Assembly: GCA_963706285.1 (NCBI GenBank)
Contig: CAVPLU010000016.1
Location: forward strand, 32,001-96,000
Direction of reading: 5' to 3'
Origin: Candidatus Bathyarchaeota archaeon
Lineage (GTDB): Archaea; Thermoproteota; Bathyarchaeia; 40CM-2-53-6
Length of the DNA: 64,000 nt
Each line of letters starts with the position of its first letter. The first letter of the stretch is position 1. Under the pieces are notes generated by a model. The model saw only the letters and a program-made list of their open reading frames with translations. It did not search any database and was not told the DNA's origin. Below are positions 9,721 to 22,656 of the stretch, piece by piece. The position numbers were made by a program, and so were the translations under genes.

Positions 9721-10434
9721 TTGGCCGCAGGGAAGCCCTTGGTAACGAGACACCCGTCACTCGCCTTGCAGAAACAAATGCTCGACACGATTCTGCGCCG
9801 ATTCCCAGTGCGAAACCGACCCGGTTCCACTTCCGCGTTTGAAACCCTGATCCAGACTGTCCTGTCGCAGAATACAAGTGACGTGAACAGTGGCAGAGCG
9901 ATGGAAAGGCTTCAGAGCCGGCTTGATATCACGCCTGAAGTTCTTTCGCGGACTCCTATCGACGAACTGATTGAATCTATTCGTCCTGCAGGACTTTACA
10001 GAGTTAAGGCTCCCAGGATCAAAGAGATCTCATCGATAATCATCAATCGATTCAGCGGCGATTTTGATTCCATCCTGAAAAGGAGACCCGAAGAGGCACG
10101 ATCGATCCTAACGGAGCTGCCTGGCGTCGGCTACAAGACCGCAGACGTCGTGCTCGCGTTCGTTACGGGTCACCCGACAATTCCAGTTGACACACACGTG
10201 ATGAGAGTGAGCAAACGGCTGGGGATAACTCGAAAGAATGCGGGTTATGAAGAGATCAGACTCGGGCTTGAGAGGCTCGTGCCTCCTAATCGGAGGGTGA
10301 GAATGCATCTCTCTCTGATTCGATTTGGACGTGAGATCTGCAAGGCACCAAAACCGCTGTGCCCTCAATGCCCAGTGAATAGAACCTGCCCAAGCTCCAC
10401 AACACGTGTGAGAATCCAACACCACATGGTCTAG
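9721..10434 (+). CDS. nth: Endonuclease III (HhH-GPD glycosylase, 4Fe-4S)
   Basis: LSQNT, LPGVGYKTA, VDTHV, C-x6-C-x2-C-x5-C. Confidence 0.9.
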   Translation: MAAGKPLVTRHPSLALQKQMLDTILRRFPVRNRPGSTSAFETLIQTVLSQNTSDVNSGRAMERLQSRLDITPEVLSRTPIDELIESIRPAGLYRVKAPRIKEISSIIINRFSGDFDSILKRRPEEARSILTELPGVGYKTADVVLAFVTGHPTIPVDTHVMRVSKRLGITRKNAGYEEIRLGLERLVPPNRRVRMHLSLIRFGREICKAPKPLCPQCPVNRTCPSSTTRVRIQHHMV

Positions 10435-10554
10435 CTCTAATACACCGAATATATGTCATCTCCACATTCATATTATGGCGAAATCACCATTTTATAACAA
10501 CATTTCCAACAACTAATATACTGTCAAATACGCCCTATAGCTCCCGACCTTCAA

Positions 10555-11783: not shown

Positions 11784-14700
11784 CTACATGAAATCCGCCA
11801 AGGCTGGTTGCTTCTTCTCTTGGCTCTCGTCAGCTTCTTCGCGGAAGAGAGACTTCAGCTCTTCCTGAAGAAGGAGCAGCCGTTGACTGTTGTAGATTCC
11901 AAGGTCATATCGTCGAACAAGACCTCGGGCCAGGTCTAGGTACTTCTCGATGGTGCCCCTGTAGACGGTCATCGTAATCTTGCCTCCGCACTTCGGGCAG
12001 ACTCCTACTAGCGGAGGGCGGCGATACTTCGCATTGCATTTCATGCATCGCATGCGCTGCGTCGAGAAAGCTCTCAAATTGCCGATCAAGTCTCTCATTA
12101 GATGTGTCGAGAGTACTCGTCGCGCCACGTCCGCTGCAACGACCGCACGTATCTTCTCCGCGAGATTGAGCTGCGCGGACATCTTGTCGATCATGGTCGG
12201 TAGCTGGGTGTAGGCGCTCTCGTGGGTTCCGGTGTTTATGTCTCCTATCTCATGTGTGAAGCCGATCGGCTGGAGAATTCGGTCGCTTCCCAAGCGATGG
12301 ACGACGACTTCGATCAGGTCAGCGACTGCTTTTGGATCGGCGTTCTTTGATGCTTCATCGAAGAACCTTACCGGAAAGCTGTTCACGGCTTCAAGGTTGA
12401 ACGCTTGACGAGCAATCTCTGAGGGATTCATTACAACGGTTAGAAGCATCGGCGCATCCATGATGCCTCCAATCCGGGATGGTAGAAACGACCTTGAGAA
12501 GTTTATCAGAACATCCAACGCCAGCGTGACAGAGTCTTCGTCGCCGTCGCAATCTCGTCGTTTCGATGCATGCCAGAACGGATGGGCGAAGCATACTCTG
12601 GCCTTGGTGAAGCCAATGATTCTGCCGATTATACCTACGGATGTGTGAGGCGAGAGCCCAACTACAAGATGTCCAACCAGATCGTCACGACTCTTCATGT
12701 TGTAGAAAGATGGGAGATCGTAGAATCGTGTCAACAGATTGTCGACAAAATCTGCGACTCTCACGAGGTAGTCTCCGCACGAATCGTTTACGATAATATC
12801 TTGTGATTCTATCGGAATGACTTGATTGGCGTTCTCAAGCGGATTTCCATCAGCGTCTGTATCATAGCCCAGTTTGCGAAGCGTCTCGACGGTGACGCCA
12901 ATCTCGGCTGGTCGGAAGTGAGTCAGAGGAGCGTTTGTCGCATCAAACCTGACGGTGCCGTCCTTGAACATGGAGAGGTCGTACCTTGCGCGAAGGATGC
13001 CCTTCTCTAGCGGTTCTGGGCACCTGGAGCCGCTCATCAGACTCTTCACGCCCTTCACGACCTCAGGCTCCTCTCCCAAACGCAGTTTCTTCGAAGCGGC
13101 AGACCAGATCTCGCTCACTGCGATGGCTGTTCTCTCATATGGACGCGCGTTAATCTTGCATGCGGGGCAGAGTTCTTGCGAGAGTGTCCTCCCACATTTC
13201 GGACATATCATCTCGACCTCTGTTCTGCTCGCGCATTTTGGACAGAGAGTCTTGTAGGTGATAATTCCACAAGTTTTGCAGCTGCGTCTGATCAGCTCTG
13301 CCTCTACGATACTGCCTGACTTTGCCGCTTCCACAATGTTACGTCTTGCTCCGCCCGCAAGTCCTACGGGAAACAGGCAATGTGTGACTGGACGCATCTC
13401 TCTTCTCTTAGCCTTCTCAGGTCTGCCCATCCTTGCCCCTATGAACGTCCCACCTCGAGTTAGGATGGGAAATCCTGCAACTATTCCTGCAGCTTCCAAG
13501 CCGTGATTTCCCACATGGTCAGGCATCGGTTTGCCCACGCCTAGACATGCTGCGAGCACGATTGCGTCCTCGCCAAAACAGATGCTGCCATCTTGGACTT
13601 TGTGAGGAATGCACAATGTTTCAAGGAGGGCTTTGATCTTCGGTTCGTTTGGAGCTACGACTGCACTCTCTGGGTCAACCAGACGAGGACCGAGCCTCTC
13701 CCTAAGGTAAGTCCAATCTTCGGCAGAAAGTCTCTCCCAGAACCAGGTATAGCGTGGATGAAGAGGCACCCCGAGCCTCTGAGAGACCATCAAGCACTCT
13801 TGAGGGGATGGAAACGATCGTAGAGGCTCCTCCATGAGCAACTTCAACCGAGCTTGGGCTATACCGCAGGCATGCTCGACCTCCGACAGCGACTGAAAGT
13901 CCAGCTCGGTTCGGTTCTTGAGTAGCTGCGCCCACCATTCTTCTGTGAATCCTGGAGATGCAAGGGGTCTATTGTTCTCAAGGAATTCCCCGTAGGAGAT
14001 GAGCAAATCTCCGACGAAAAGCACTGACTGGATGGATTTCTGCAATTGTCTTGCTTGGTCGGCGCTGTCGAGCCTGACCACTGAACCGTCGCTCAGCTTG
14101 ACTATGGGAGGCTCTATGGTGTCAACTGGCGTGACGATGCCAGCTTTCCCTGGTCTTTCGATTCTCAGCTGTGTTCCGATCGCTGGGAAGTCGTCCAGGG
14201 CCACCATTGTCGAAGGATGGATTCCAATCGCCGCCATGCCTGTGGCACGTGTTCGGCCATAGCGAAGCCTGAAGCCTCCCAGCGCCCCGGGAAAGGAGAA
14301 GATCGGCCGGCCAGCGACAACATCCTCCATGAACATCAACTCCTTTACCTCGTCAGCCTCTGGTGACGGCTGACGAAGATCACGCAGCCAATCCCATCCG
14401 GCGAGGTTCAATCTCTCGACGATCTTCACTACCTTCTGGCTGCGGCCTATGAGACCGTCATTGACGACTCGTAGTGCACCGCCTCTAACGCGGTTAGTCT
14501 CTATCCTAGGCACGTTTCTGTACGACGCGACTTCAACCTGGTCTGTCTCGACACCAGTGATTTCTACCGGCAGCTTCAGAATCGCATTGTACAGCTCGTC
14601 ATCAGGGATGTGATACTGGAACCGCGCGACCTCGCGTTCGTAGAGCCTGAGTTCTTCTACGAAACGTTTAGCCTCAATCTCAGTCGCTTTGTACTTCCCA

Positions 14701-15188
14701 AGCCCACAGATCTGGCGAACATATTCAGCCACGACGACTGTTAGGCCCATCTCGGTGCCGCCTGCGGATCTTATGGGACCCGCGAAGTAGAGTGCAAGAT
14801 ACTTGGTTTTGTCAGGATTACTCTTGATCTTGACTGTGTTGATTCCTTGAAGAGGAGCAGCTGTCACACCTTCGTCTAGGATCGCTGCAGCGGTACGTAT
14901 CGCCTGCTCCGTCGCACATTCGGCCTCTGTTGCGAAACCAGCGAGCGTTATCTCCTCTGCAATTTTGATTGCGACTTCCTCGCGTGGAATCATTGAGGAT
15001 AGTTCACGGATTCTTACCGCTATGCCAGGTGGGCCTACGGATTTCTCGACCCTTTCAGCGACATCCCTTGCGACCTTACATTCTGGTTCGAGCGAGGGAT
15101 CCAGTCCCTTCGAATGTGCGATCCCTGCTAGTTCATGGAGTTGATTGAACTGAGTCCGAAGACGGTCGCCGTTCGGACTCGTCAGCAA
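11784..15188 (-). CDS. polC: DNA polymerase D large subunit DP2 (no intein)
   Basis: EGVTAAPLQGI, AGPIRSAGGT, GFRLRYGR, RMGRPEKA, catalytic RRDCDGDED, C-terminal Zn finger. Confidence 0.97.
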   Translation of the reverse strand: MLTSPNGDRLRTQFNQLHELAGIAHSKGLDPSLEPECKVARDVAERVEKSVGPPGIAVRIRELSSMIPREEVAIKIAEEITLAGFATEAECATEQAIRTAAAILDEGVTAAPLQGINTVKIKSNPDKTKYLALYFAGPIRSAGGTEMGLTVVVAEYVRQICGLGKYKATEIEAKRFVEELRLYEREVARFQYHIPDDELYNAILKLPVEITGVETDQVEVASYRNVPRIETNRVRGGALRVVNDGLIGRSQKVVKIVERLNLAGWDWLRDLRQPSPEADEVKELMFMEDVVAGRPIFSFPGALGGFRLRYGRTRATGMAAIGIHPSTMVALDDFPAIGTQLRIERPGKAGIVTPVDTIEPPIVKLSDGSVVRLDSADQARQLQKSIQSVLFVGDLLISYGEFLENNRPLASPGFTEEWWAQLLKNRTELDFQSLSEVEHACGIAQARLKLLMEEPLRSFPSPQECLMVSQRLGVPLHPRYTWFWERLSAEDWTYLRERLGPRLVDPESAVVAPNEPKIKALLETLCIPHKVQDGSICFGEDAIVLAACLGVGKPMPDHVGNHGLEAAGIVAGFPILTRGGTFIGARMGRPEKAKRREMRPVTHCLFPVGLAGGARRNIVEAAKSGSIVEAELIRRSCKTCGIITYKTLCPKCASRTEVEMICPKCGRTLSQELCPACKINARPYERTAIAVSEIWSAASKKLRLGEEPEVVKGVKSLMSGSRCPEPLEKGILRARYDLSMFKDGTVRFDATNAPLTHFRPAEIGVTVETLRKLGYDTDADGNPLENANQVIPIESQDIIVNDSCGDYLVRVADFVDNLLTRFYDLPSFYNMKSRDDLVGHLVVGLSPHTSVGIIGRIIGFTKARVCFAHPFWHASKRRDCDGDEDSVTLALDVLINFSRSFLPSRIGGIMDAPMLLTVVMNPSEIARQAFNLEAVNSFPVRFFDEASKNADPKAVADLIEVVVHRLGSDRILQPIGFTHEIGDINTGTHESAYTQLPTMIDKMSAQLNLAEKIRAVVAADVARRVLSTHLMRDLIGNLRAFSTQRMRCMKCNAKYRRPPLVGVCPKCGGKITMTVYRGTIEKYLDLARGLVRRYDLGIYNSQRLLLLQEELKSLFREEADESQEKKQPALADFM

Positions 15189-15261
15189 GGGTTCCGGCCT
15201 TCAAGTAGGTGTCAAGATGGATCAGCGGATGTCCGGATTATTAGCTGGTCTGGTCAGCTTT

Positions 15262-15522
15262 TCACTTCTGGAGCCGGAGGCTTGAGGCTGTACCGGTTAG
15301 GTAGTACTTGTCAGTGAACTTGCAGTACACGTCGACCATCTGCGTGCCTCGAGGAACATCAAATTCGTCTTTCACCCCACATGCGGCACAGTGAATGGCT
15401 GCCATACCTGCGCTTTTTGGCAGGATGACCTTCATGGCATCTTCATTGCAGACCGGGCAAGTGAAGACTGTTGGCAGCTTCTTCTTGACGATCCTGATGA
15501 CACGTCTACGTCGACGACCCAT
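15262..15522 (-). CDS. elf1: Transcription elongation factor Elf1
   Basis: MGRRRRR..LPTVFTCPVC..CAAC..VDVY.KF.D. Confidence 0.9.
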   Translation of the reverse strand: MGRRRRRVIRIVKKKLPTVFTCPVCNEDAMKVILPKSAGMAAIHCAACGVKDEFDVPRGTQMVDVYCKFTDKYYLTGTASSLRLQK

Positions 15523-15667
15523 GCTAATCTCACTGTGACGCATGGGTGATGCGCCACTTATTTCAACGTTCCATGCGATCTTGGGAACCAGTCGAGCAAG
15601 GGTTATCAGAGCGGAGGAATGAGATTGCCGGGGATACGAAACTGTATCTCCTAGAGAGGTCCCTAAA

Positions 15668-16153
15668 ATGACCGCGGAACAAGCTCAATTACCCATCGAC
15701 TGGTCTCTCGCCACGCTCAAGGATGATAGACTTGCGAAGATACTGCTGCGGAACAGCCATCTCACACAAGTTCAATTCGCCACTTTGATCATTGATGCCC
15801 TATGGCCAACAACTCAATCAGCGCATGAGAATGAGAAGTCTAGGTCGAGTCGGCGTAAGGTAAGCAAGGGCGCATTCAACAGATCCCTGGCTCAGGCTCG
15901 CGGAAACGTCATCAAGTCCATCTACACGGTCTTCCTACTCTCCTATTTCGGCCTGTTTGATAGCCCTAAATTGGAACCTTTTCTGCGGTTAGGCGATGAA
16001 ATGAAAACTTTCCTTGACGCCAAGCAAGAAACGGGGGTTAAAGGCGAAGCTGCAGCCCTTGACGCCATGAAAACACTGGAAGATGCGTTGGAAAGCTCCA
16101 TCAGCGACCTCGCGAGGATGAATTCCTTCAAGCGTCAGCGAGATCTCACGTGA
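15668..16153 (+). CDS. Hypothetical protein, possible HTH
   Basis: Clean ORF divergent from elf1; LT..Q and VSKGAFNRSLAQAR helix pattern. Confidence 0.6.
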   Translation: MTAEQAQLPIDWSLATLKDDRLAKILLRNSHLTQVQFATLIIDALWPTTQSAHENEKSRSSRRKVSKGAFNRSLAQARGNVIKSIYTVFLLSYFGLFDSPKLEPFLRLGDEMKTFLDAKQETGVKGEAAALDAMKTLEDALESSISDLARMNSFKRQRDLT

Positions 16154-16433
16154 CATCTGCCAGACGCGCATTGAAGCCAAGGCCGGCAGATCACAGTCAC
16201 GCTTGAAGAATGATGCGGTGTGATATCACACGGGTCACAGTCATGTGATCCACAACTCCTACCTTAGCACGAACCTATCTCCTGAAGGCAATTACGCAGA
16301 AATTGAGCGTAAATGGGAGGGCTAGATCACGCGACTCTCTCTCGAATGGGAACTCCTAGGAAAGACATGTTCGACCCGCGATCACGGCTGAGATCACGAT
16401 CGTGACGTGTGTGACGCGTCACAGCCAAATCAC
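16146..16433. repeat. Array of 15 TCAC/GTGA motifs including several perfect palindromes
   Basis: Palindromes TCACGTGA (16146), GTGTGATATCACAC (16218), TCACGATCGTGA (16394), TGTGACGCGTCACA (16410) plus single sites; about 2 expected by chance. Confidence 0.75.
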
Positions 16434-16520
16434 AAGGGTCAAAGACTGTGGAATTGACAAAGTCGCAGTATTCAAGACATAAAAGCCTAAGAGGGGAATT
16501 GTCAGGCGGCATGGATTACC

Positions 16521-17225
16521 TTGGATTATTTCTGGCTGTTCGCACCCATTTCGGCGGTTTTCGGAGCTCTACTGACTGGAGTTGTGCTTCGAAGGCTTGA
16601 CATTTCTCGAATGAGCTACCGCGAAGCGAAGCAGATGCTGTCAGCGATCGTTGGTTCGCTGTCGAATCGGATCGAGCAGAATGAAGCACTCACGAAAGAA
16701 TTGTCAGAGCAGCTCGAGATCCTGTCGGCAAACCATGCACGCGTTAGTGTCGAAGGACAAACCGCTGACAAAGAACGACTTCTCATCTTCATGCAGGACT
16801 GGATGGGGAACCTGAAGCGGTTCATTGAGAAAGTGGATGGACTTCAGAAGAGCCTCAAGAGCGCTGAACATGAAATTCAGGAGATGCGAGTTCGCGTCGA
16901 ACAGTTGAGCGGTGCTCGCGCCCAAAGCTCAATCCCTTCAGAAGCACCAGTGGGTGTTGTGACAAAAGAGACGCTTACGAGGCTCTCGCCGACCGAGAAA
17001 ACTGTGTTGGAGCTTCTGATAGGTGGCCCAAAGGCAGCTCCTGAGATTGGGCGACTTGTAGGGAAATCACGTGAGCACACAGCCCGAATGATGAAGTCGC
17101 TCTTCGAACAGGGTTTCGTCGAGAGAGAAGCAAACCGTCAACCATACCAGTACCGTATCAACGACAAAGTTGGAGAGGTACTAGGACGCCCTTCTCAAGC
17201 AGAGGCTATTCAACGCGAAGGCTAG
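16521..17225 (+). CDS. Membrane-anchored coiled-coil protein with C-terminal winged helix
   Basis: N-terminal TM (WLFAPISAVFGALLTGVVL), heptad-rich helix aa about 35-130, wHTH LSPTEKTVLELL..SREHTARMMKSL. Confidence 0.75.
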   Translation: MDYFWLFAPISAVFGALLTGVVLRRLDISRMSYREAKQMLSAIVGSLSNRIEQNEALTKELSEQLEILSANHARVSVEGQTADKERLLIFMQDWMGNLKRFIEKVDGLQKSLKSAEHEIQEMRVRVEQLSGARAQSSIPSEAPVGVVTKETLTRLSPTEKTVLELLIGGPKAAPEIGRLVGKSREHTARMMKSLFEQGFVEREANRQPYQYRINDKVGEVLGRPSQAEAIQREG

Positions 17226-17617
17226 GCGTGCGCTGAGCGAGAGCAGTAGCGCCAACTACCGGGAGAACCGGAACGGTATAGGAGACCTCTGTCGACAAGC
17301 CTTGAAAGGTAGGTCGCAACCGTCGTCAGGGGAATTGGTTCGGCATACAATTGCTGGTACAATGTCCTGACTTCATGCGAAGAAAATGTGGCTTCCCGAA
17401 GCCTGTGAACTACGAGATCTCGAACGCGCTCCAGTTTGGTACGCGCGTATTGGGATGGATCCTGGGTTGCTGATTGTGAGGAAACGCCGCCCATGAGCTC
17501 CGTGTAGTCGAGGATTCTCGCAATCTTCTCTCGAGTAAGAGGGCCCTCGAGAGAAACGGTATGCCGGCAGCCTGAATCGTCATAGAACTCAATTCTAAGA
17601 CGTTTGACTGCCAACAC
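17222..17617 (-). CDS. Winged-helix protein with small N-terminal beta-hairpin/helix domain
   Basis: FSSHEV..LYQQLY.EPIPLTTVATYLSRLVDRGLL wHTH; stop overlaps the preceding convergent gene. Confidence 0.7.
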   Translation of the reverse strand: MLAVKRLRIEFYDDSGCRHTVSLEGPLTREKIARILDYTELMGGVSSQSATQDPSQYARTKLERVRDLVVHRLREATFSSHEVRTLYQQLYAEPIPLTTVATYLSRLVDRGLLYRSGSPGSWRYCSRSAHA

Positions 17618-17694
17618 GCGACACTCTCACGAGTCTGTGTGAACGACGTGTAGATAAAGGGATTATGTGTGACATGACTGTTACTCCTTGGTCA

Positions 17695-18180
17695 GTTCCA
17701 ATGGAAAAATGAAGTATTCCAGCGGAAACGGAGGGGTGTGTCCTAGTTCACTTAATGTGAACCTATTTCTTGCCTGAAAACTTCCACAAAGCCCAGACCT
17801 GGTTGAGATATGATTATGATTACACATGATGACAGTTGAATGTGAAGTGTCCCTAACCCCTGCCTTTCCAGTGGAGTTCGTTTTGACATTTCACGGTCTG
17901 AAAAAGAGTCTTAGTGTTACTACTACAATAATTAGCATAACCTTCCTTATCCTAAAACTCTCGCTAATATACACAGGATTTTTTTCTCAACACTACACTT
18001 CACTTCTTTAGGAATACGTTTCTCCAGGGGAAGTGCACGGGTGCCGGGGAGGTAATGCTCAACTCCATACAAATCAATATGATTCAGGTTTCACGATTTT
18101 TTTGTTGCAACTAGTCTTACTTCTTCGACAATGATGATTATTATGAGTTCAAGTAGAAAGACGGGGATTACCAGTGGAGA
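17695..18180. other. Chromosomal replication origin (oriC) with ORB elements
   Basis: TTCCAGCGGAAACGGAGGGG (17717, +), inverted copy CCCCTGCCTTTCCAGTGGAG (17857-17876), mini-ORBs at 17695, 18022, 18169; AT-rich stretches; directly upstream of cdc6. Confidence 0.88.
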
Positions 18181-18186
18181 TGCCTA

Positions 18187-19452
18187 ATGGAGAAGCCTAG
18201 TATGAAATCAGCAGACGTTCTTGAAGGCATCTTTGAGAACTTCCTCACTGGACCACAACTGTTCATTAATCGAGAAGTTCTGAGAAACGACTACATCCCC
18301 AGCACGCTACCTCACCGTGCAGAACACATTCAGAGACTAGGCGGTATACTCGCGCCGGCCCTGAGTGGTTCCAAGATATCCAACCTTTTCGTGTATGGGA
18401 AGACTGGAACCGGGAAAACCATAGTAGCAAAATTCGTGTTAGAGAGACTGAAGAAGAAGGCCGAGGATGTCGGCACACCTGTTCGAATCTCATACGTCAA
18501 CTGTCGCATGGCAGGAAGCAACTATCGAGTGCTCGCTGATCTCTGTCGCTGCGTCGGAGTTGAGATTCCCTTCACAGGCCTGGCATTAGGTGAAGTTCTG
18601 GATAGATTCAGGACCGGCCTAAACGCCGACAAAACCCCTCTCATAGTTGTCTTAGATGAAATAGACGCCCTCGTCAAGGGTCGTCAAGACGACTCCCTGC
18701 TCTATGAATTGACCAGAATCAATGAAGAGCTTGGCCAAAGCTGGATTGGAATAGTCGGCGTCTCCAACGATCTCCACTTCAAAGAGTTCCTCGACCCTCG
18801 AGTGCTGAGTTCTCTAAGCGAAGAAGAGGTCGTCTTCAGGCCCTATCTCGCAAACGAACTCTACGACATTCTCCTCGACAGAGCCAAACTAGCGTTTGCT
18901 GATGGAATCCTATCGGAACCCCCCCTCCGACTCTGTGCAGGGCTCGCAGCCGGCGAACACGGCGACGCCAGAAGAGCACTCGACCTATTACGAGTGGCAG
19001 GAGAGCTTGCGGAACGCGAAGGCGCACGCACGATCCAGGAGGACCATGTCAAACGTGCGCAACACAAGATTGAACACGACAGAGTCGCCGAAGTGCTGAA
19101 GTCACTTCCTGTACATTCAAAGGTCGTGTTGGTCTGCGCGTATCTGGCCACTAATCAGGCGCCAGAAGGCGTGATCACAGGCGACATCTACGAGGTCTAT
19201 CATGAGCTGTGCTCAGCGGCAGGGTTGGATCCACTTACGCAACGGCGTGTGAGCGGCCTAGTGAACGAGCTTGATGTAATGGGAATTCTCAACGCAAGGG
19301 TCGTAAGCTTCGGCCGGTACGGTAGAACTAAGAAGATAAGACTCGGCGTCTCACCTAGAGTCATCGTTGAAACCTACTCGGAAGACACCCTCGTCGGACG
19401 ATTATTCAGCCACGTACCCAGATCTCTCCAGAAGCGCCCAGGAATCGCTTAG
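18187..19452 (+). CDS. cdc6: Orc1/Cdc6 replication initiator
   Basis: LPHR, GKTGTGKT Walker A, VLDEID, GDARRALDLLR, C-terminal wHTH GRYGRT. Confidence 0.97.
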   Translation: MEKPSMKSADVLEGIFENFLTGPQLFINREVLRNDYIPSTLPHRAEHIQRLGGILAPALSGSKISNLFVYGKTGTGKTIVAKFVLERLKKKAEDVGTPVRISYVNCRMAGSNYRVLADLCRCVGVEIPFTGLALGEVLDRFRTGLNADKTPLIVVLDEIDALVKGRQDDSLLYELTRINEELGQSWIGIVGVSNDLHFKEFLDPRVLSSLSEEEVVFRPYLANELYDILLDRAKLAFADGILSEPPLRLCAGLAAGEHGDARRALDLLRVAGELAEREGARTIQEDHVKRAQHKIEHDRVAEVLKSLPVHSKVVLVCAYLATNQAPEGVITGDIYEVYHELCSAAGLDPLTQRRVSGLVNELDVMGILNARVVSFGRYGRTKKIRLGVSPRVIVETYSEDTLVGRLFSHVPRSLQKRPGIA

Positions 19453-20023
19453 AGCTGTCGGCATAGACGACGGCCCATCAAAACGCAGTGGAACAACGAA
19501 GTCATCTACGTCTCACGCCTCGTTGGTCGCAGTCTGGTTTGACCAACTAAGATTCGACCAAATACGCATCGGAGTTCTGGAAGTTGATGGACTGGATTCA
19601 ACCAACGTAATCCTCAAGCTACTCAGGGGAACACGAACAGACATAATCTTTCTTTCAGGAATCACCTTCGCAGGATTCAACATCGTCGATTCTACCCGAC
19701 TTCACAATACGCTTCACATTCCGATTATCGTTGTCTGCCGAGAGAAGCCTGATAATCGCTCCGTCAAACGTGCGCTTCAGAAGCATTTCACAGACTGGGA
19801 GAAACGATGGGAGCTGGTGCGCAAGTTTGGGAGGATATACTCATTCGCGCCGAAACCGTCAGAGCAGCCTCTACATTTTGAAGCTGTTGGCATCTCAGCA
19901 GCCCATGCGAAGAAGGTCATCAGTGCCTACTGTGCCACGTCGAGGATTCCCGAACCTATCCGGGTTGCCGGCATCGTCGCAAAAGGACTAGCTCTAACCG
20001 GCGCGGAGCTAAACGCTCGATAG
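19367..20023 (+). CDS. DUF99 family / endonuclease dU (start uncertain)
   Basis: VGIDDGP, VDGLDST, LSGITFAGFNIVD, IPEPIRVA. Confidence 0.85.
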   Translation: MKPTRKTPSSDDYSATYPDLSRSAQESLRAVGIDDGPSKRSGTTKSSTSHASLVAVWFDQLRFDQIRIGVLEVDGLDSTNVILKLLRGTRTDIIFLSGITFAGFNIVDSTRLHNTLHIPIIVVCREKPDNRSVKRALQKHFTDWEKRWELVRKFGRIYSFAPKPSEQPLHFEAVGISAAHAKKVISAYCATSRIPEPIRVAGIVAKGLALTGAELNAR

Positions 20024-21538
20024 ACATGAAGTCGGTGACGCTAAGCTTCAGCGTCTGAAGGTTCACTACCGGGAGCAGACCAGGCGTAGGCTTTAGGCCC
20101 ATTCGCTGCTGATATTCCGTCTGATGCTTGCCACGCACCCGAGTTCACAATGAGCGTCCCTCGATACTGCTCGTGACCAAAGACGTGAATATGTCCTGAA
20201 TGAAATACGTCGGGCGGATTCTCAATTATCAAATGATCCTCTGGCATTGGCGCGATAGATGTTCGGTTGCCGTACTCAGGAGCCAAATGTCTGCATCGAA
20301 GCTGAAGCTCCATCGCCCTCTCGGGTTTGTCGAAACTCATTCCAGGAGCGCTTGTCAACATGTCCTCAAGGCTTCGGCCGTGATGTACGAGGAAACGTAC
20401 TCCATGAAGCTCCACTTCGCATGGGTTCCCTAGCGACGTAACGTGTCGTGCCTCATAGACGGGTTCACCATACTCTCTCGAGATCGCGGGTTGGGGGAGC
20501 GCCTGTCTTACGCCGTCGTGATTGCCTGGACTGATAATGACTTCCATGTGTTCTGGTATCTGTTGGATGAATCGAGCAGCATACTTGTACTGCTCGTAGA
20601 TGTCTGGAATGGTTAGCTCGTCCTCTTGGCGAGGATAGACTCCTATTCCATCTACGAGATCTCCAGCGATGATGACGTACTTGGTTCGTTGAGCAACGTA
20701 GACTTGTTGAGGGTTTCCCACTTCGCCGTTAAGCCAACGAATTGCACGTTTGAAAGCGTCTTCCAGGAACTTGTTGCTACCAACATGAATGTCAGATAGG
20801 AGAACCGCGTAGACTTCTTCCTTTGCGCCTCGGGGCCTTCTCTCCGGGATATCTGGAAGCGTGACTCTCTGGGCGACGAGGAGACTCCGGCTGCTCTTCA
20901 CGGCTTCGATGCAGACAACTTGGTCGAGCGGAGCCGTTAGAGCCATCTCGTAGAGTTGACGGTCGCGGTCTGTTGGGACCAGAACCTGTGCCGTGTCTTC
21001 GAAATCGTCCACGCTTAGGAAGAGCTTGTTTCCTCGCTCACGCTTATCCATTATCATCCCAATGAACTTCACATGTGCGCTCTGCTGTGCGTTGAGAGCA
21101 TCGGATATCGTGCCTGCATCTCTGGCGTCGCTTCTTCGTTGAAGGATCTCACGCATCTTCACGAATCGGTCTCGGAAGTGCCGGTTGAAGTCGTCCATTG
21201 ATCCACCGAAGGTCGACATGCTGGAAGGGTCTTTCAACACCTTCAATTCGCTCTGGATCTGAGCCGCAACTGGGGCTCCGGCTCTGACGGGTTCGGAGAT
21301 TCGAATCGTCTCAGCCAGCGGGAGCATGTGATTGAGGACTAGTTCAACAACGGGGCGGTCAATCAGGTGTTGCTTAGGATGCTGCTTCTTTGCCGCCGCG
21401 ATCAATTCTTCAGCCAGTCTTATCTTGGTCGAGGCTGCCGGCCGAAGCCTGAATGAGGTCGAAGGCGTCCGTGCCAAATTGCCATCCTGCAGAGAGCACG
21501 CGCTCAACCACATGCCTGAAGCCTTCGTGGACCTGCAA
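19956..21538 (-). CDS. polB: DNA polymerase D small (proofreading) subunit DP1; two frameshifts (about 21420 and 20125); 3' end uncertain
   Basis: SDIHVGS, AGDLVDG, PGNHD, HGRS, RHLAP, GHIH; the N-terminal segment and the C-terminal QTEYQ..PTPG segment are in other frames. Confidence 0.92.
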
Positions 21539-21681
21539 CCGCGCTGCCTCTTAGCTGATAACTCAGAAGCCCTACTACACCTCTAGATCATGTCAGGGCG
21601 ATCTTAAGCGAAGTGGTGGCCTTCCATGATGGCTTCATTAATCTGGATGCTCGTGGAACGAGTCACTGGTGCTGAAGCCGC

Positions 21682-22656
21682 TTGGATCTCCGTCGACTCC
21701 AAAGAACGTCAGATGGAACATTCTTCGTAACTCTACCCAAACCCTGGGTCGTCAAGAACAGGCTTGAGAAAGGTGCCATTCTAAGTTTCTCGGAGCGGAA
21801 AGACGGGAAGCTGCTTACTGAGCCATATGGCGAGCAGGAACGGAAGATCAGCACGGTCACGTTGGCGCCGAGCCCGATGTTGCGGCGAGAGATCGAGGAG
21901 AATTATCTCCTCGGATACGACGTATTCGAAATAGTCTCACAGCAAGCCATTCACTCAGACACGAGAGAGACGGTGAGAAGGATCGTTCGTAGCTTGGTGG
22001 GTCTTGAGATTGTGGAGGAGGATACGAAGAAGATAGTCATACAATGCCTCATCGAACCATCGCTGCTCTTTCCGGACAAGATCCTGCGAAGGCTCCACTT
22101 GATCACATTGTCGATGCAGAAGGACGCTGTTTCATCGTTTGTTAGCGGCGATTCAAAGTTCGCTCACACCGTGATCGAACGCGACGAAGATGTTGACAGA
22201 CTATACTTCCTTCTCGTGCGAGTTGTCCGAGCGGCTTTGACTGATCCGGCGATCGCTGAGAAACTTGCCACGAGCGCCATAGAGTGCCTCGACCATAGGA
22301 TTCTCGCGAGTCTCGTTGAGAACTTCGCGGACTATGCCACCGATATTGCAGAAAGTACGTGGGCACGGGGAAAAGGTAGAGATATGGAGAGTACGATTCG
22401 AAGCATCGAGAAGGCGGGCGGCATTCTCAACCGCATGCACAAAGACGCGGTTGAAGCCGTGTTTACCAGAAACCTTGCGCTCGCTGAAGAAGCAACAAGC
22501 CTCTACAGGGACGCAGAAACAAGCATCAAGACCGCAGAGCGGGGATTAGTTAACGCAAAGCCGGAAACCATCGATCGGTTGGCAACTGTTGTGTCCGCGC
22601 TGAAAGCGATGTCAGAAATAAATGTCGACATTGCCGATTTGGCAGTCACTCGGTAG
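21682..22656 (+). CDS. phoU: Archaeal phosphate uptake regulator (AbrB + PhoU domains)
   Basis: RRLQ...TFFVTLPKPW AbrB domain; ERDEDVDRLYF PhoU repeat. Confidence 0.85.
   Translation: MDLRRLQRTSDGTFFVTLPKPWVVKNRLEKGAILSFSERKDGKLLTEPYGEQERKISTVTLAPSPMLRREIEENYLLGYDVFEIVSQQAIHSDTRETVRRIVRSLVGLEIVEEDTKKIVIQCLIEPSLLFPDKILRRLHLITLSMQKDAVSSFVSGDSKFAHTVIERDEDVDRLYFLLVRVVRAALTDPAIAEKLATSAIECLDHRILASLVENFADYATDIAESTWARGKGRDMESTIRSIEKAGGILNRMHKDAVEAVFTRNLALAEEATSLYRDAETSIKTAERGLVNAKPETIDRLATVVSALKAMSEINVDIADLAVTR

Follow-up and report, generated by a model that had tools for sequence, protein, structure and literature searches.

A three-gene module with arrays of GTGA-type sites beside the orc1-linked origin region of Bathyarchaeia and Nitrosopumilus: a candidate origin-associated, membrane-linked nucleoprotein system

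The stretch analysed here is 64,000 nucleotides of a Candidatus Bathyarchaeota archaeon genome (contig CAVPLU010000016.1, positions 32,001 to 96,000; referred to as the window). Upstream of its initiator gene orc1/cdc6 lie three genes, here called A, B and C, together with an array of TCAC/GTGA sites. Gene A (15668–16153, plus strand; identified in the open reading frame [ORF] listing) encodes 161 amino acids (aa) and is separated by a 367-bp intergenic region (16154–16520) from gene B (16521–17225, plus strand; 234 aa), which encodes a putative transmembrane (TM) helix, a coiled coil and a winged helix. Gene C (17222–17617, minus strand; 131 aa), which encodes a β-β-α domain and a winged helix, is convergent with B, the two genes meeting tail-to-tail with a 4-nt overlap. 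The site array, written as GTGAY/RTCAC and not assigned to a strand, was delimited by motif counts, is conserved in relatives and extends over 16146–16433. C diverges from orc1 (18187–19452, plus strand; Pfam Cdc6_C 2e-27, Cdc6_lid 1.7e-25), and between these two genes lies an AT-rich, oriC-type intergenic region (17618–18186) of low GC content that carries origin recognition box (ORB) cores and GTGAA/TTCAC sites.

The C–orc1 region combines the features by which archaeal oriC sequences are recognized, namely an AT-rich region with repeated ORBs adjoining orc1/cdc6. GC content is ~40% across it (0.39–0.41 at 17650–18250), and the 400 bp of lowest GC content in the 112-kb contig lie within it. 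Exact ORB cores (TCCANYGGA) are found at 17697, 17718 and 17867, with just two exact copies elsewhere in the 64 kb, and one-mismatch copies at 18023 and 18170 bring the number of ORB-like cores in the intergenic region to five. In relatives, 98 ORB cores were found in 71 loci, and after many of them stands a GGGGTG string, a feature of classical ORBs. GC skew across the contig showed a shallow local dip near the locus and no global minimum. As far as sequence allows one to judge, placing an origin next to orc1 is sound. A perfect inverted repeat, GTTCAC-TTAAT-GTGAAC (17746–17762), is located directly 3' of an ORB with a G-string (17718–17745). We considered TTCAC as a fixed ORB extension and rejected this idea, as the motif is found at +26 to +34 in only 10 of 98 cores.

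The array in front of B is the densest cluster of TCAC/GTGA sites in the 2.13-Mb genome. The richest 300-bp segment (start 16141) holds 15 sites, compared to a mean of 2.72 (standard deviation [sd] 1.68) in the 64 kb and to nine sites in the best segment outside this locus. In a scan of the whole genome (85,121 segments at a 25-bp step; mean 2.47, sd 1.55), the locus came first with 14 sites; the next four clusters (12, 11, 11 and 10 sites) lie in or beside coding sequence and lack this palindromic arrangement. Palindromes within the array occur at several spacings (TCACGTGA, GTGATATCAC, TCAC-N6-GTGA, TCACGATCGTGA and GTGACGCGTCAC). GTGAY is present 13 times in the A–B intergenic region and GTGAA not at all, and the C–orc1 region carries seven GTGAA/TTCAC sites and one GTGAY site. 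We also noted that GATC is locally enriched at 16154–16520 (6 in 367 bp, 1.63 vs. 0.63 per 100 bp) because many of the sites read GATCAC. A GATC/Dam-type reading of the array was rejected, given that GATCAC occurs 50 times in the window with 47.35 expected and that the GATC excess is lost in relatives. A strict three-site pattern was uninformative; both of its genome-wide matches in genome G116 flank gene A, and its four matches in genome G000 miss the array.

B starts with a hydrophobic 19-mer (residues 5–23; Kyte-Doolittle [KD] value 2.03) followed by basic residues, continues with a ~100-aa spacer for which only coiled-coil-type matches were obtained (residues ~30–135) and ends in a winged helix of the TrmB/MarR type (TrmB 1.2e-5, 25.5 bits vs. 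a Pfam cut-off of 25.6). TrmB matched at E ≤ 0.01 in 45 of 49 B-family members (best 1.2e-8). The winged helix is C-terminal in B, whereas TrmB-family regulators have it at the N-terminus, and the C-terminal effector (sugar)-binding domain of TrmB is absent from B, which ends ~20 residues past the winged helix. In the recognition helix, R184, E185, H186 and R189 are invariant in 49 sequences, out to Nitrosopumilus, and the helix reads S-R-E-H-T in most members. A search for defense systems with PADLOC returned generic winged-helix (CasR/Csa3) matches for B and no defense family beyond these. The predicted topology comprises an outside tail of a few residues, the TM helix, the spacer and a cytoplasmic winged helix, with no sensor domain outside the membrane. 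This is the build that one would expect of a protein tethering DNA directly to the membrane. We also asked of the recognition helix whether T or V after the histidine tracks the presence of the motif and rejected this idea, as L121 and L136, of the V type, keep GTGACGTCAC upstream of A.

The AlphaFold model of C (mean predicted local distance difference test [pLDDT] 81.7) begins with two strands and a helix, which a disordered linker (residues 46–58) joins to a winged helix. Foldseek related it to winged helices of the BlaI, RosR, Fur, PadR and AspA types (prob ~1.0), with E values no better than 9e-3 because only half of C aligns. Penicillinase_R was matched weakly by 48 of 54 C members; C of the window aligned with profile positions 21–62 of 115 at 19.6 bits (cut-off 22.6). 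A full-length BlaI/MecI match including the C-terminal dimerization helices was not found for C, which has the N-terminal β-β-α domain instead, and PDB sequence profiles gave no useful match (best E 0.25). The C family comprises 473 representative clusters at E ≤ 1e-3 among 1.84 billion proteins.

For A, the structure model is all-α (pLDDT 74), and no Pfam or NCBIfam match was obtained. Among 37 A members scanned, 14 Pfam families were matched weakly, none of them helix-turn-helix (HTH) and none in more than two members. PDB sequence profiles revealed no relative (best E 0.58), and a fold search returned only generic helical hairpins over residues 99–161 (Z ≤ 7.5), without a fold match. An Atlas neighbor of A at a score of 0.80, with Sigma70_r4 on 14% of its members, is a lead only. 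The A family contains 1517 database proteins at E ≤ 1e-3; among the 120 A-family proteins listed, none has a Pfam domain and all are unnamed or named 'hypothetical protein'. Viral contigs held no relatives of A or C. Complex predictions of A with B (residues 30–234) and with C scored 0.00 and 0.00 and, run without controls, are uninformative either way. A preliminary description of the stretch had spoken of three HTH genes at an ORB-containing origin, with a TCAC/GTGA array, a gene B encoding a TM helix, a coiled coil and a winged HTH, and a convergent winged-HTH gene C. The array, the predicted domains of B, the winged helix and orientation of C and, so far as sequence goes, the origin were all borne out; of the three HTH genes, B and C hold up through their winged helices, and in A no HTH was recognized by Pfam, NCBIfam or fold comparison.

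The gene order is conserved over a wide range of genomes. Twenty order-level loci were chosen around B and all contain B by that choice; A is present in 20, C in 18 (not in L037 and L038, genus g9) and orc1 in 19, the locus without orc1 (L024) ending at a contig edge. At the class level, A, B, C and orc1 occur in the same order in 69 of the best 80 public-genome loci; eight others are cut by contig ends, L048 and L079 lack B (tblastn) and L074 lacks C. Among 20 loci outside Bathyarchaeia, nine have A, B, C and orc1 and one has A, B and C at a contig end, the remainder having A and B only (six), A and C (two) or A alone (two). Three of these full loci are in genomes whose identical proteins are named Nitrosopumilus, and the 90% cluster of the A homologue includes N. 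koreensis AR1 (NKOR_09550), N. piranensis and N. zosterae. In Nitrosopumilus, PolD-large is followed by A, B and C (120, 201 and 128 aa, respectively; B with a TM helix and a winged helix) and then by two classical ORBs, orc1 and PolD-small. We conclude that A-B-C is a real and ancient chromosomal module of Bathyarchaeia and Nitrososphaeria.

A is the most widespread member of the module: 204 of the 251 genomes from Bathyarchaeia have it, as do 122 of the 135 that are of high quality and 136 of 301 genomes of a phylum sample. B was found in 29 of 41 relatives and C in 63 of 101 Bathyarchaeia genomes. The orc1 orthologues at the locus are 60–94% identical in Bathyarchaeia other than family f22. 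In five loci of genus g2, orc1 and the endonuclease dU gene come first and A-B-C follow ~2 kb further downstream; in a sixth locus the three genes are inverted, with A facing orc1; throughout these rearrangements the trio stays within 5 kb of orc1. The trio has therefore moved as a unit and remained near orc1. Some Bathyarchaeia carry a 2.6-kb insertion between B and C (L095:10436–12971) that encodes an ATPase resembling HerA (DUF87, 5.3e-8) and a 339-aa protein that matches nothing in Pfam; the two may be a pair of the HerA/NurA type.

The arrays accompany the genes. In the order-level loci, the A–B region is enriched in sites in 18 of 20 (1.9–6.3 vs. 0.6–1.1 per 100 bp background), the two non-enriched loci being those with a 2.3-kb insertion, and in 75 class-level loci its median density is 2.84 vs. 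0.69 per 100 bp background. Many other orders have an equally dense array 0.4–0.9 kb upstream of A (16 sites in 200 bp in L120), with a very AT-rich stretch in between. Across 69 loci, the 1 kb upstream of A has a median of 12 TCAC/GTGA sites, the A–B and C–orc1 regions have 11 each and the B–C region has 1, with a median total of 35 per locus (range 21–50). The sites fall into two classes that are told apart by the base after GTGA. Upstream of A and between A and B, this base is T or C in 82–87% of sites (TGTGAY); GTGAY density there is 1.64 and 2.54, respectively, vs. 0.33 per 100 bp, and GTGAA is at or below background. In the C–orc1 region, the base is A in 76% of sites (TGTGAA); the median is eight GTGAA sites (1.03 vs. 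0.27 per 100 bp), concentrated in the C-proximal 40% of the region, and GTGAY is at background (0.25). In the C–orc1 region of the Nitrosopumilus-named locus L131 (10640–10940), GTTAAC(A) is repeated many times around two ORBs, and these repeats may represent a lineage-specific class of origin site.

Spacing between neighboring sites of the GTGAY arrays is strongly patterned. Start-to-start distances of 6 bp (GTGA-N2-TCAC) occur in 136 cases, 65 of them GTGACGTCAC and 52 GTGACATCAC, and direct repeats occur 250 times at 7 bp and 191 times at 11 bp; adjacent distances are in single or low double digits. These counts include many close-kin loci and overstate the number of independent events; the pattern recurs in distant orders and in Nitrosopumilus. 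The spacing of 6, 7 and 11 bp fits dimers and cooperative, side-by-side binding.

Of all observations, those in family f22 discriminate best between the explanations considered below. In this family, the order is PolD-large, elf1, NAD synthase, A, HypF, B, a cupin-like gene and PolD-small, with NAD synthase and HypF on the opposite strand; C, orc1 and an ORB core are absent from the locus (3/3 loci), and across f22 genomes C was detected in 2 of 23, both weak matches. C is missing together with the locus orc1 orthologue. GTGAY arrays are present in f22 inside the NAD synthase and HypF coding sequences, in the GTGACGTCAC and TCACGTGATATCAC forms (L144:8440–8700 and 10350–10500; likewise in L145 and L143). 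The f22 NAD synthase genes contain 14, 13 and 8 GTGAY sites vs. a median of one in 67 orthologues, an excess that holds at locus GC contents of both 39% and 58%. In a Caldarchaeum-named genome (A cluster mate CSUB_C0745), A and B overlap as an operon, B consists of a TM helix and a winged helix only, and neither C nor orc1 is nearby, C being located ~490 kb away and not beside an orc1. Sites of the GTGACGTCAC or GTGATGC type are found upstream of the A-B operon even with C and orc1 elsewhere, and in L141, whose C gene is unlinked, two GTGAA sites precede that gene.

The sites at promoters speak for a self-regulated transcription-factor cassette, the main rival explanation. Here, B would act as a regulator tethered to the membrane and perhaps set free or controlled by A; C would be a second repressor and the sites the operators of A, B and C, with the adjacency to orc1 an inherited gene order without a role in replication. 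Sites indeed occur in the upstream region of each of the three genes, and A-B as well as C retain GTGA-type sites when unlinked from orc1. Moreover, reduced lineages keep only two to four sites, right at the A-B promoter, and the flanking replication genes are syntenic as a block. Other properties of the arrays are less readily accommodated by operators. The number of sites per locus far exceeds what operators need, and the array of the window is positioned ~45–330 bp upstream of B's TATA-like box rather than over it. B has no outside domain for sensing. In f22, the arrays lie in the coding sequences of other genes, 0.4–1 kb from the A and B starts and in excess over orthologues; as these sites shape another gene's codons far from the starts, they are hard to explain as promoter operators. 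We read the in-gene arrays as pointing to a role of the DNA array as such, and consider the cassette possible, if rather doubtful.

The site classes suggest candidate binders. B, perhaps with A, is the likely binder of GTGAY because these sites accompany A-B everywhere, including lineages in which C is unlinked, and because B has the only confirmed DNA-binding domain of the pair, with an invariant recognition helix. C is likely to bind GTGAA because such sites precede its gene at the origin as well as in L141, where C is unlinked. Our preferred, still tentative reading, to which we give somewhat less than even weight, is that B, with or without A, would build a membrane-linked nucleoprotein complex on the arrays that flank the origin, and that C would act within the origin region. 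From the features described above we infer the following assignment of proteins to sites, the membrane insertion, the complex and its effects on origin position, segregation or initiation. The core of the module would be the A-B pair together with the GTGAY arrays (GTGAYRTCAC palindromes, 7- and 11-bp direct repeats). B would dimerize via its coiled coil and be anchored by its N-terminal TM helix, and its cytoplasmic winged helix would bind GTGAY sites, probably together with the helical A. About ten sites per array and ~20 per locus could give rise to a higher-order nucleoprotein complex, which would hold the 1–2 kb of DNA flanking oriC against the membrane. C would occupy the GTGAA sites at its end of the oriC intergenic region and might be functionally coupled to orc1 and the origin, regulating either firing or the transcription of orc1 and of its own gene. 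An origin-organizing apparatus that works without an ATPase, with B and A coating the GTGAY arrays and pinning the origin region to the membrane and C sitting on GTGAA among the ORBs, appears possible to us, though less likely than not.

The position of C and of its putative sites also bears on a device that controls initiation rather than tethering the origin. Arrays and proteins would sequester, titrate or remodel origin-proximal DNA, similar in function to SeqA/datA, and C would be a cofactor or antagonist of Orc1 at oriC that sets the time of firing. This role overlaps with both the tether and the cassette. It is consistent with the C gene facing orc1 across the origin, with GTGAA sites interleaved with ORBs, with the loss of C together with its cognate orc1 in f22 and with the AT-rich stretches beside the arrays. 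Sulfolobus UBP, with its ucm motif, is a precedent for an accessory protein that binds an origin (PMC12141716). On the other hand, g9 and most of f14 do without C although orc1 is present, the GTGAY arrays lie 1–2 kb from the ORB cluster instead of inside it, and A-B persist without a nearby origin. We regard initiation control as the principal role as unlikely.

The AT-rich stretches raise the question of a second, non-ORB origin, in which an initiator of the A/B/C type would use the arrays as iterons and the adjoining AT-rich stretch would serve as the unwinding element. The 300–350 bp upstream of A are the lowest-GC part of the locus and are bordered by the array (L120:8600–8950; L144:8850–9150); in L144, this stretch has 32% GC vs. 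58% for the locus, and L120 gives a like picture. Arrays thus flank the lowest-GC stretch of several loci, L120 and L144 among them, and this arrangement persists in f22, in whose loci no ORB core was found. In profile scans, however, A, B and C showed no ATPase, helicase-loader or Rep domain, and neither A nor C has relatives on viral contigs. In addition, f22 still has an Orc1 homologue elsewhere in the genome (28–32% identity only; 4/5 genomes, L149–L152), and a single origin has reportedly been mapped in N. maritimus (Pelve et al. 2013, as cited in the review PMC4010727). We consider a second origin highly improbable.

Several observations weigh against a membrane-linked complex at the origin as the general function of the module. 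A-B and their arrays persist in 3/3 f22 loci without a local orc1 or ORB, and the A-B operon of the Caldarchaeum-named genome has just two sites, at the promoter. Within the intergenic region of the origin, GTGAY shows no enrichment and a different site, GTGAA, takes its place. B lacks the TM helix in genera g2 and g13 (6 of 16 order-level sequences aligned), and B of L122 lacks the coiled coil. C is found in only 2 of 8 genomes of f14, though orc1 still adjoins B there, and in none of three g9 genomes (83–92% complete), where orc1 is still next to B. In some genera (g2, g4 and g9), a GTGAYRTCAC palindrome lies shortly ahead of the start codon of B, as a repressor site would. PolD-large, elf1, orc1, PolD-small and the PhoU-domain gene are syntenic, and part of the linkage to orc1 may be inertia; related genomes, moreover, are not independent counts. 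The ancestral role of the module may have been plain autoregulation, with a link to the origin that is not obligatory, and binding of any of the sites by A, B or C is putative. The preliminary description had suggested that the origin region is anchored directly to the membrane and had made conservation next to origins the touchstone. The synteny survey answers the latter in the affirmative, with genes and array conserved next to orc1 across Bathyarchaeia and in Nitrosopumilus, and conservation and the build of B speak for anchoring; the loci with A-B away from orc1 (f22, Caldarchaeum-named), the TM-less B of g2 and g13 and the absence of GTGAY enrichment from the origin region limit it. Given A-B away from orc1 and B without a TM helix, origin tethering is therefore plausible, not universal.

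Site clusters close to the genes or the origin, a mark of partition systems, are provided by the GTGAY arrays. In agreement with the preliminary description, which had noted no ParA/SegA ATPase, PF01656 and PF13614 gave no match on the contig that holds the window (C16), with matches on C2, C4, C8, C10 and C12. In ~125 related loci (tblastn, ORF maps), no ParA/SegA-type gene is present between A and orc1, the only ATPase inserted there being, in some loci, the HerA-like (DUF87) one. Neither B nor C matches any ParB family in Pfam and NCBIfam scans, and Pfam, NCBIfam and PDB sequence searches yielded no partition-protein match save weak AspA rows (E 0.37–0.39). The module resembles ParB/parS and SegA/SegB of Sulfolobus in having origin-near site clusters with a dedicated binder encoded beside them. 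It differs from ParABS and SegAB in that no ParA/SegA ATPase is encoded on the contig and in that B and C are winged-helix proteins, not of the ParB type.

During sporulation of Bacillus subtilis, the adaptor RacA, which combines an HTH with a coiled coil, binds ram sites clustered near the origin and connects this region with the cell envelope. B likewise would be a DNA-binding adaptor with a coiled coil on clustered sites near an origin. RacA, however, is soluble and depends on DivIVA to reach the membrane, a step for which B would rely on the TM helix in its own sequence; the two proteins also differ in domain order and in the family of their HTH, and no search revealed a sequence relation between them. 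In addition, ram sites are spread over hundreds of kilobases and the arrays of the module lie within ~3 kb. Noc of Bacillus is a ParB paralogue with an amphipathic helix and ~70 dispersed NBS sites that avoid the terminus. Noc, as predicted for B, is a sequence-specific DNA binder that brings chromosomal sites to the membrane; unlike Noc, B would be an integral TM protein with one compact site cluster.

ToxR and CadC are, like B, TM proteins with a cytoplasmic winged helix, but they have a periplasmic sensor domain where B has almost nothing outside the membrane. C is closest in its winged helix to Penicillinase_R and in this respect to BlaI/MecI; BlaI has a C-terminal dimerization domain and BlaR1 as a partner, whereas C has its N-terminal β-β-α domain and no such neighbor. 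At Sulfolobus oriC1, UBP is described as a non-initiator protein on a specific motif (ucm) in the origin, beside Orc1 sites (PMC12141716). The same account presents UBP as a β-rich, 111-aa nucleoid protein with hundreds of genomic sites that is not encoded at the origin; C, in contrast, is a winged-helix protein with its gene at the origin and belongs to another lineage. None of RacA, Noc, ParB, SegAB or UBP is homologous to the module. RacA/ram, Noc/NBS, ParB/parS, SegAB and UBP may be regarded as its nearest analogues by function. Full-text literature searches returned no description of an A-B-C module.

The module is embedded in a neighborhood of replication genes. Upstream of A lie the PolD large subunit gene (11784–15188, minus strand; ORF listing and Pfam scan) and elf1 (15262–15543, minus strand; PF05129, 3.3e-18), and downstream of orc1 the endonuclease dU gene (19367–20023, longest ORF), the PolD small subunit gene (20041–21513, minus strand) and a PhoU-domain gene with a MazE/AbrB-like N-terminus (21682–22656). 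The longest ORF of endonuclease dU overlaps the 3' end of orc1 by 86 nt (19367–19452), and its true start may be further downstream. The PolD subunit genes flank the origin, and elf1 and the endonuclease dU and PhoU-domain genes keep their places around it (11784–22656 in the window), a 'replication island' that is conserved from Bathyarchaeia to Nitrosopumilus. An Rfam scan of 15000–18700 gave no RNA family match, and a scan for bacterial promoters and terminators, with models that are ill-suited to archaea, remained at chance level. RNA-library contigs with 95–99% likeness cover 15621–15874 (one contig) and parts of orc1 (two contigs). These are a weak hint of expression and could stem from DNA carry-over or from a relative.

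That site arrays are kept within the coding sequences of genes unrelated to the module is, in its own right, an unusual finding. The module bears on what acts at archaeal origins besides Orc1 and on how origins are placed and segregated in archaea without SegAB or ParABS. It is present in most of the Bathyarchaeia sampled and in cultivable Nitrosopumilus, and every member seen is annotated as 'hypothetical protein'. It thereby supplies concrete candidate proteins, DNA sites and predictions that can be tested in lab-grown Nitrosopumilus. If the proposal is true, Bathyarchaeia and Nitrososphaeria, ammonia oxidizers among them, would have in this module their first described origin-membrane tether or centromere-like system.

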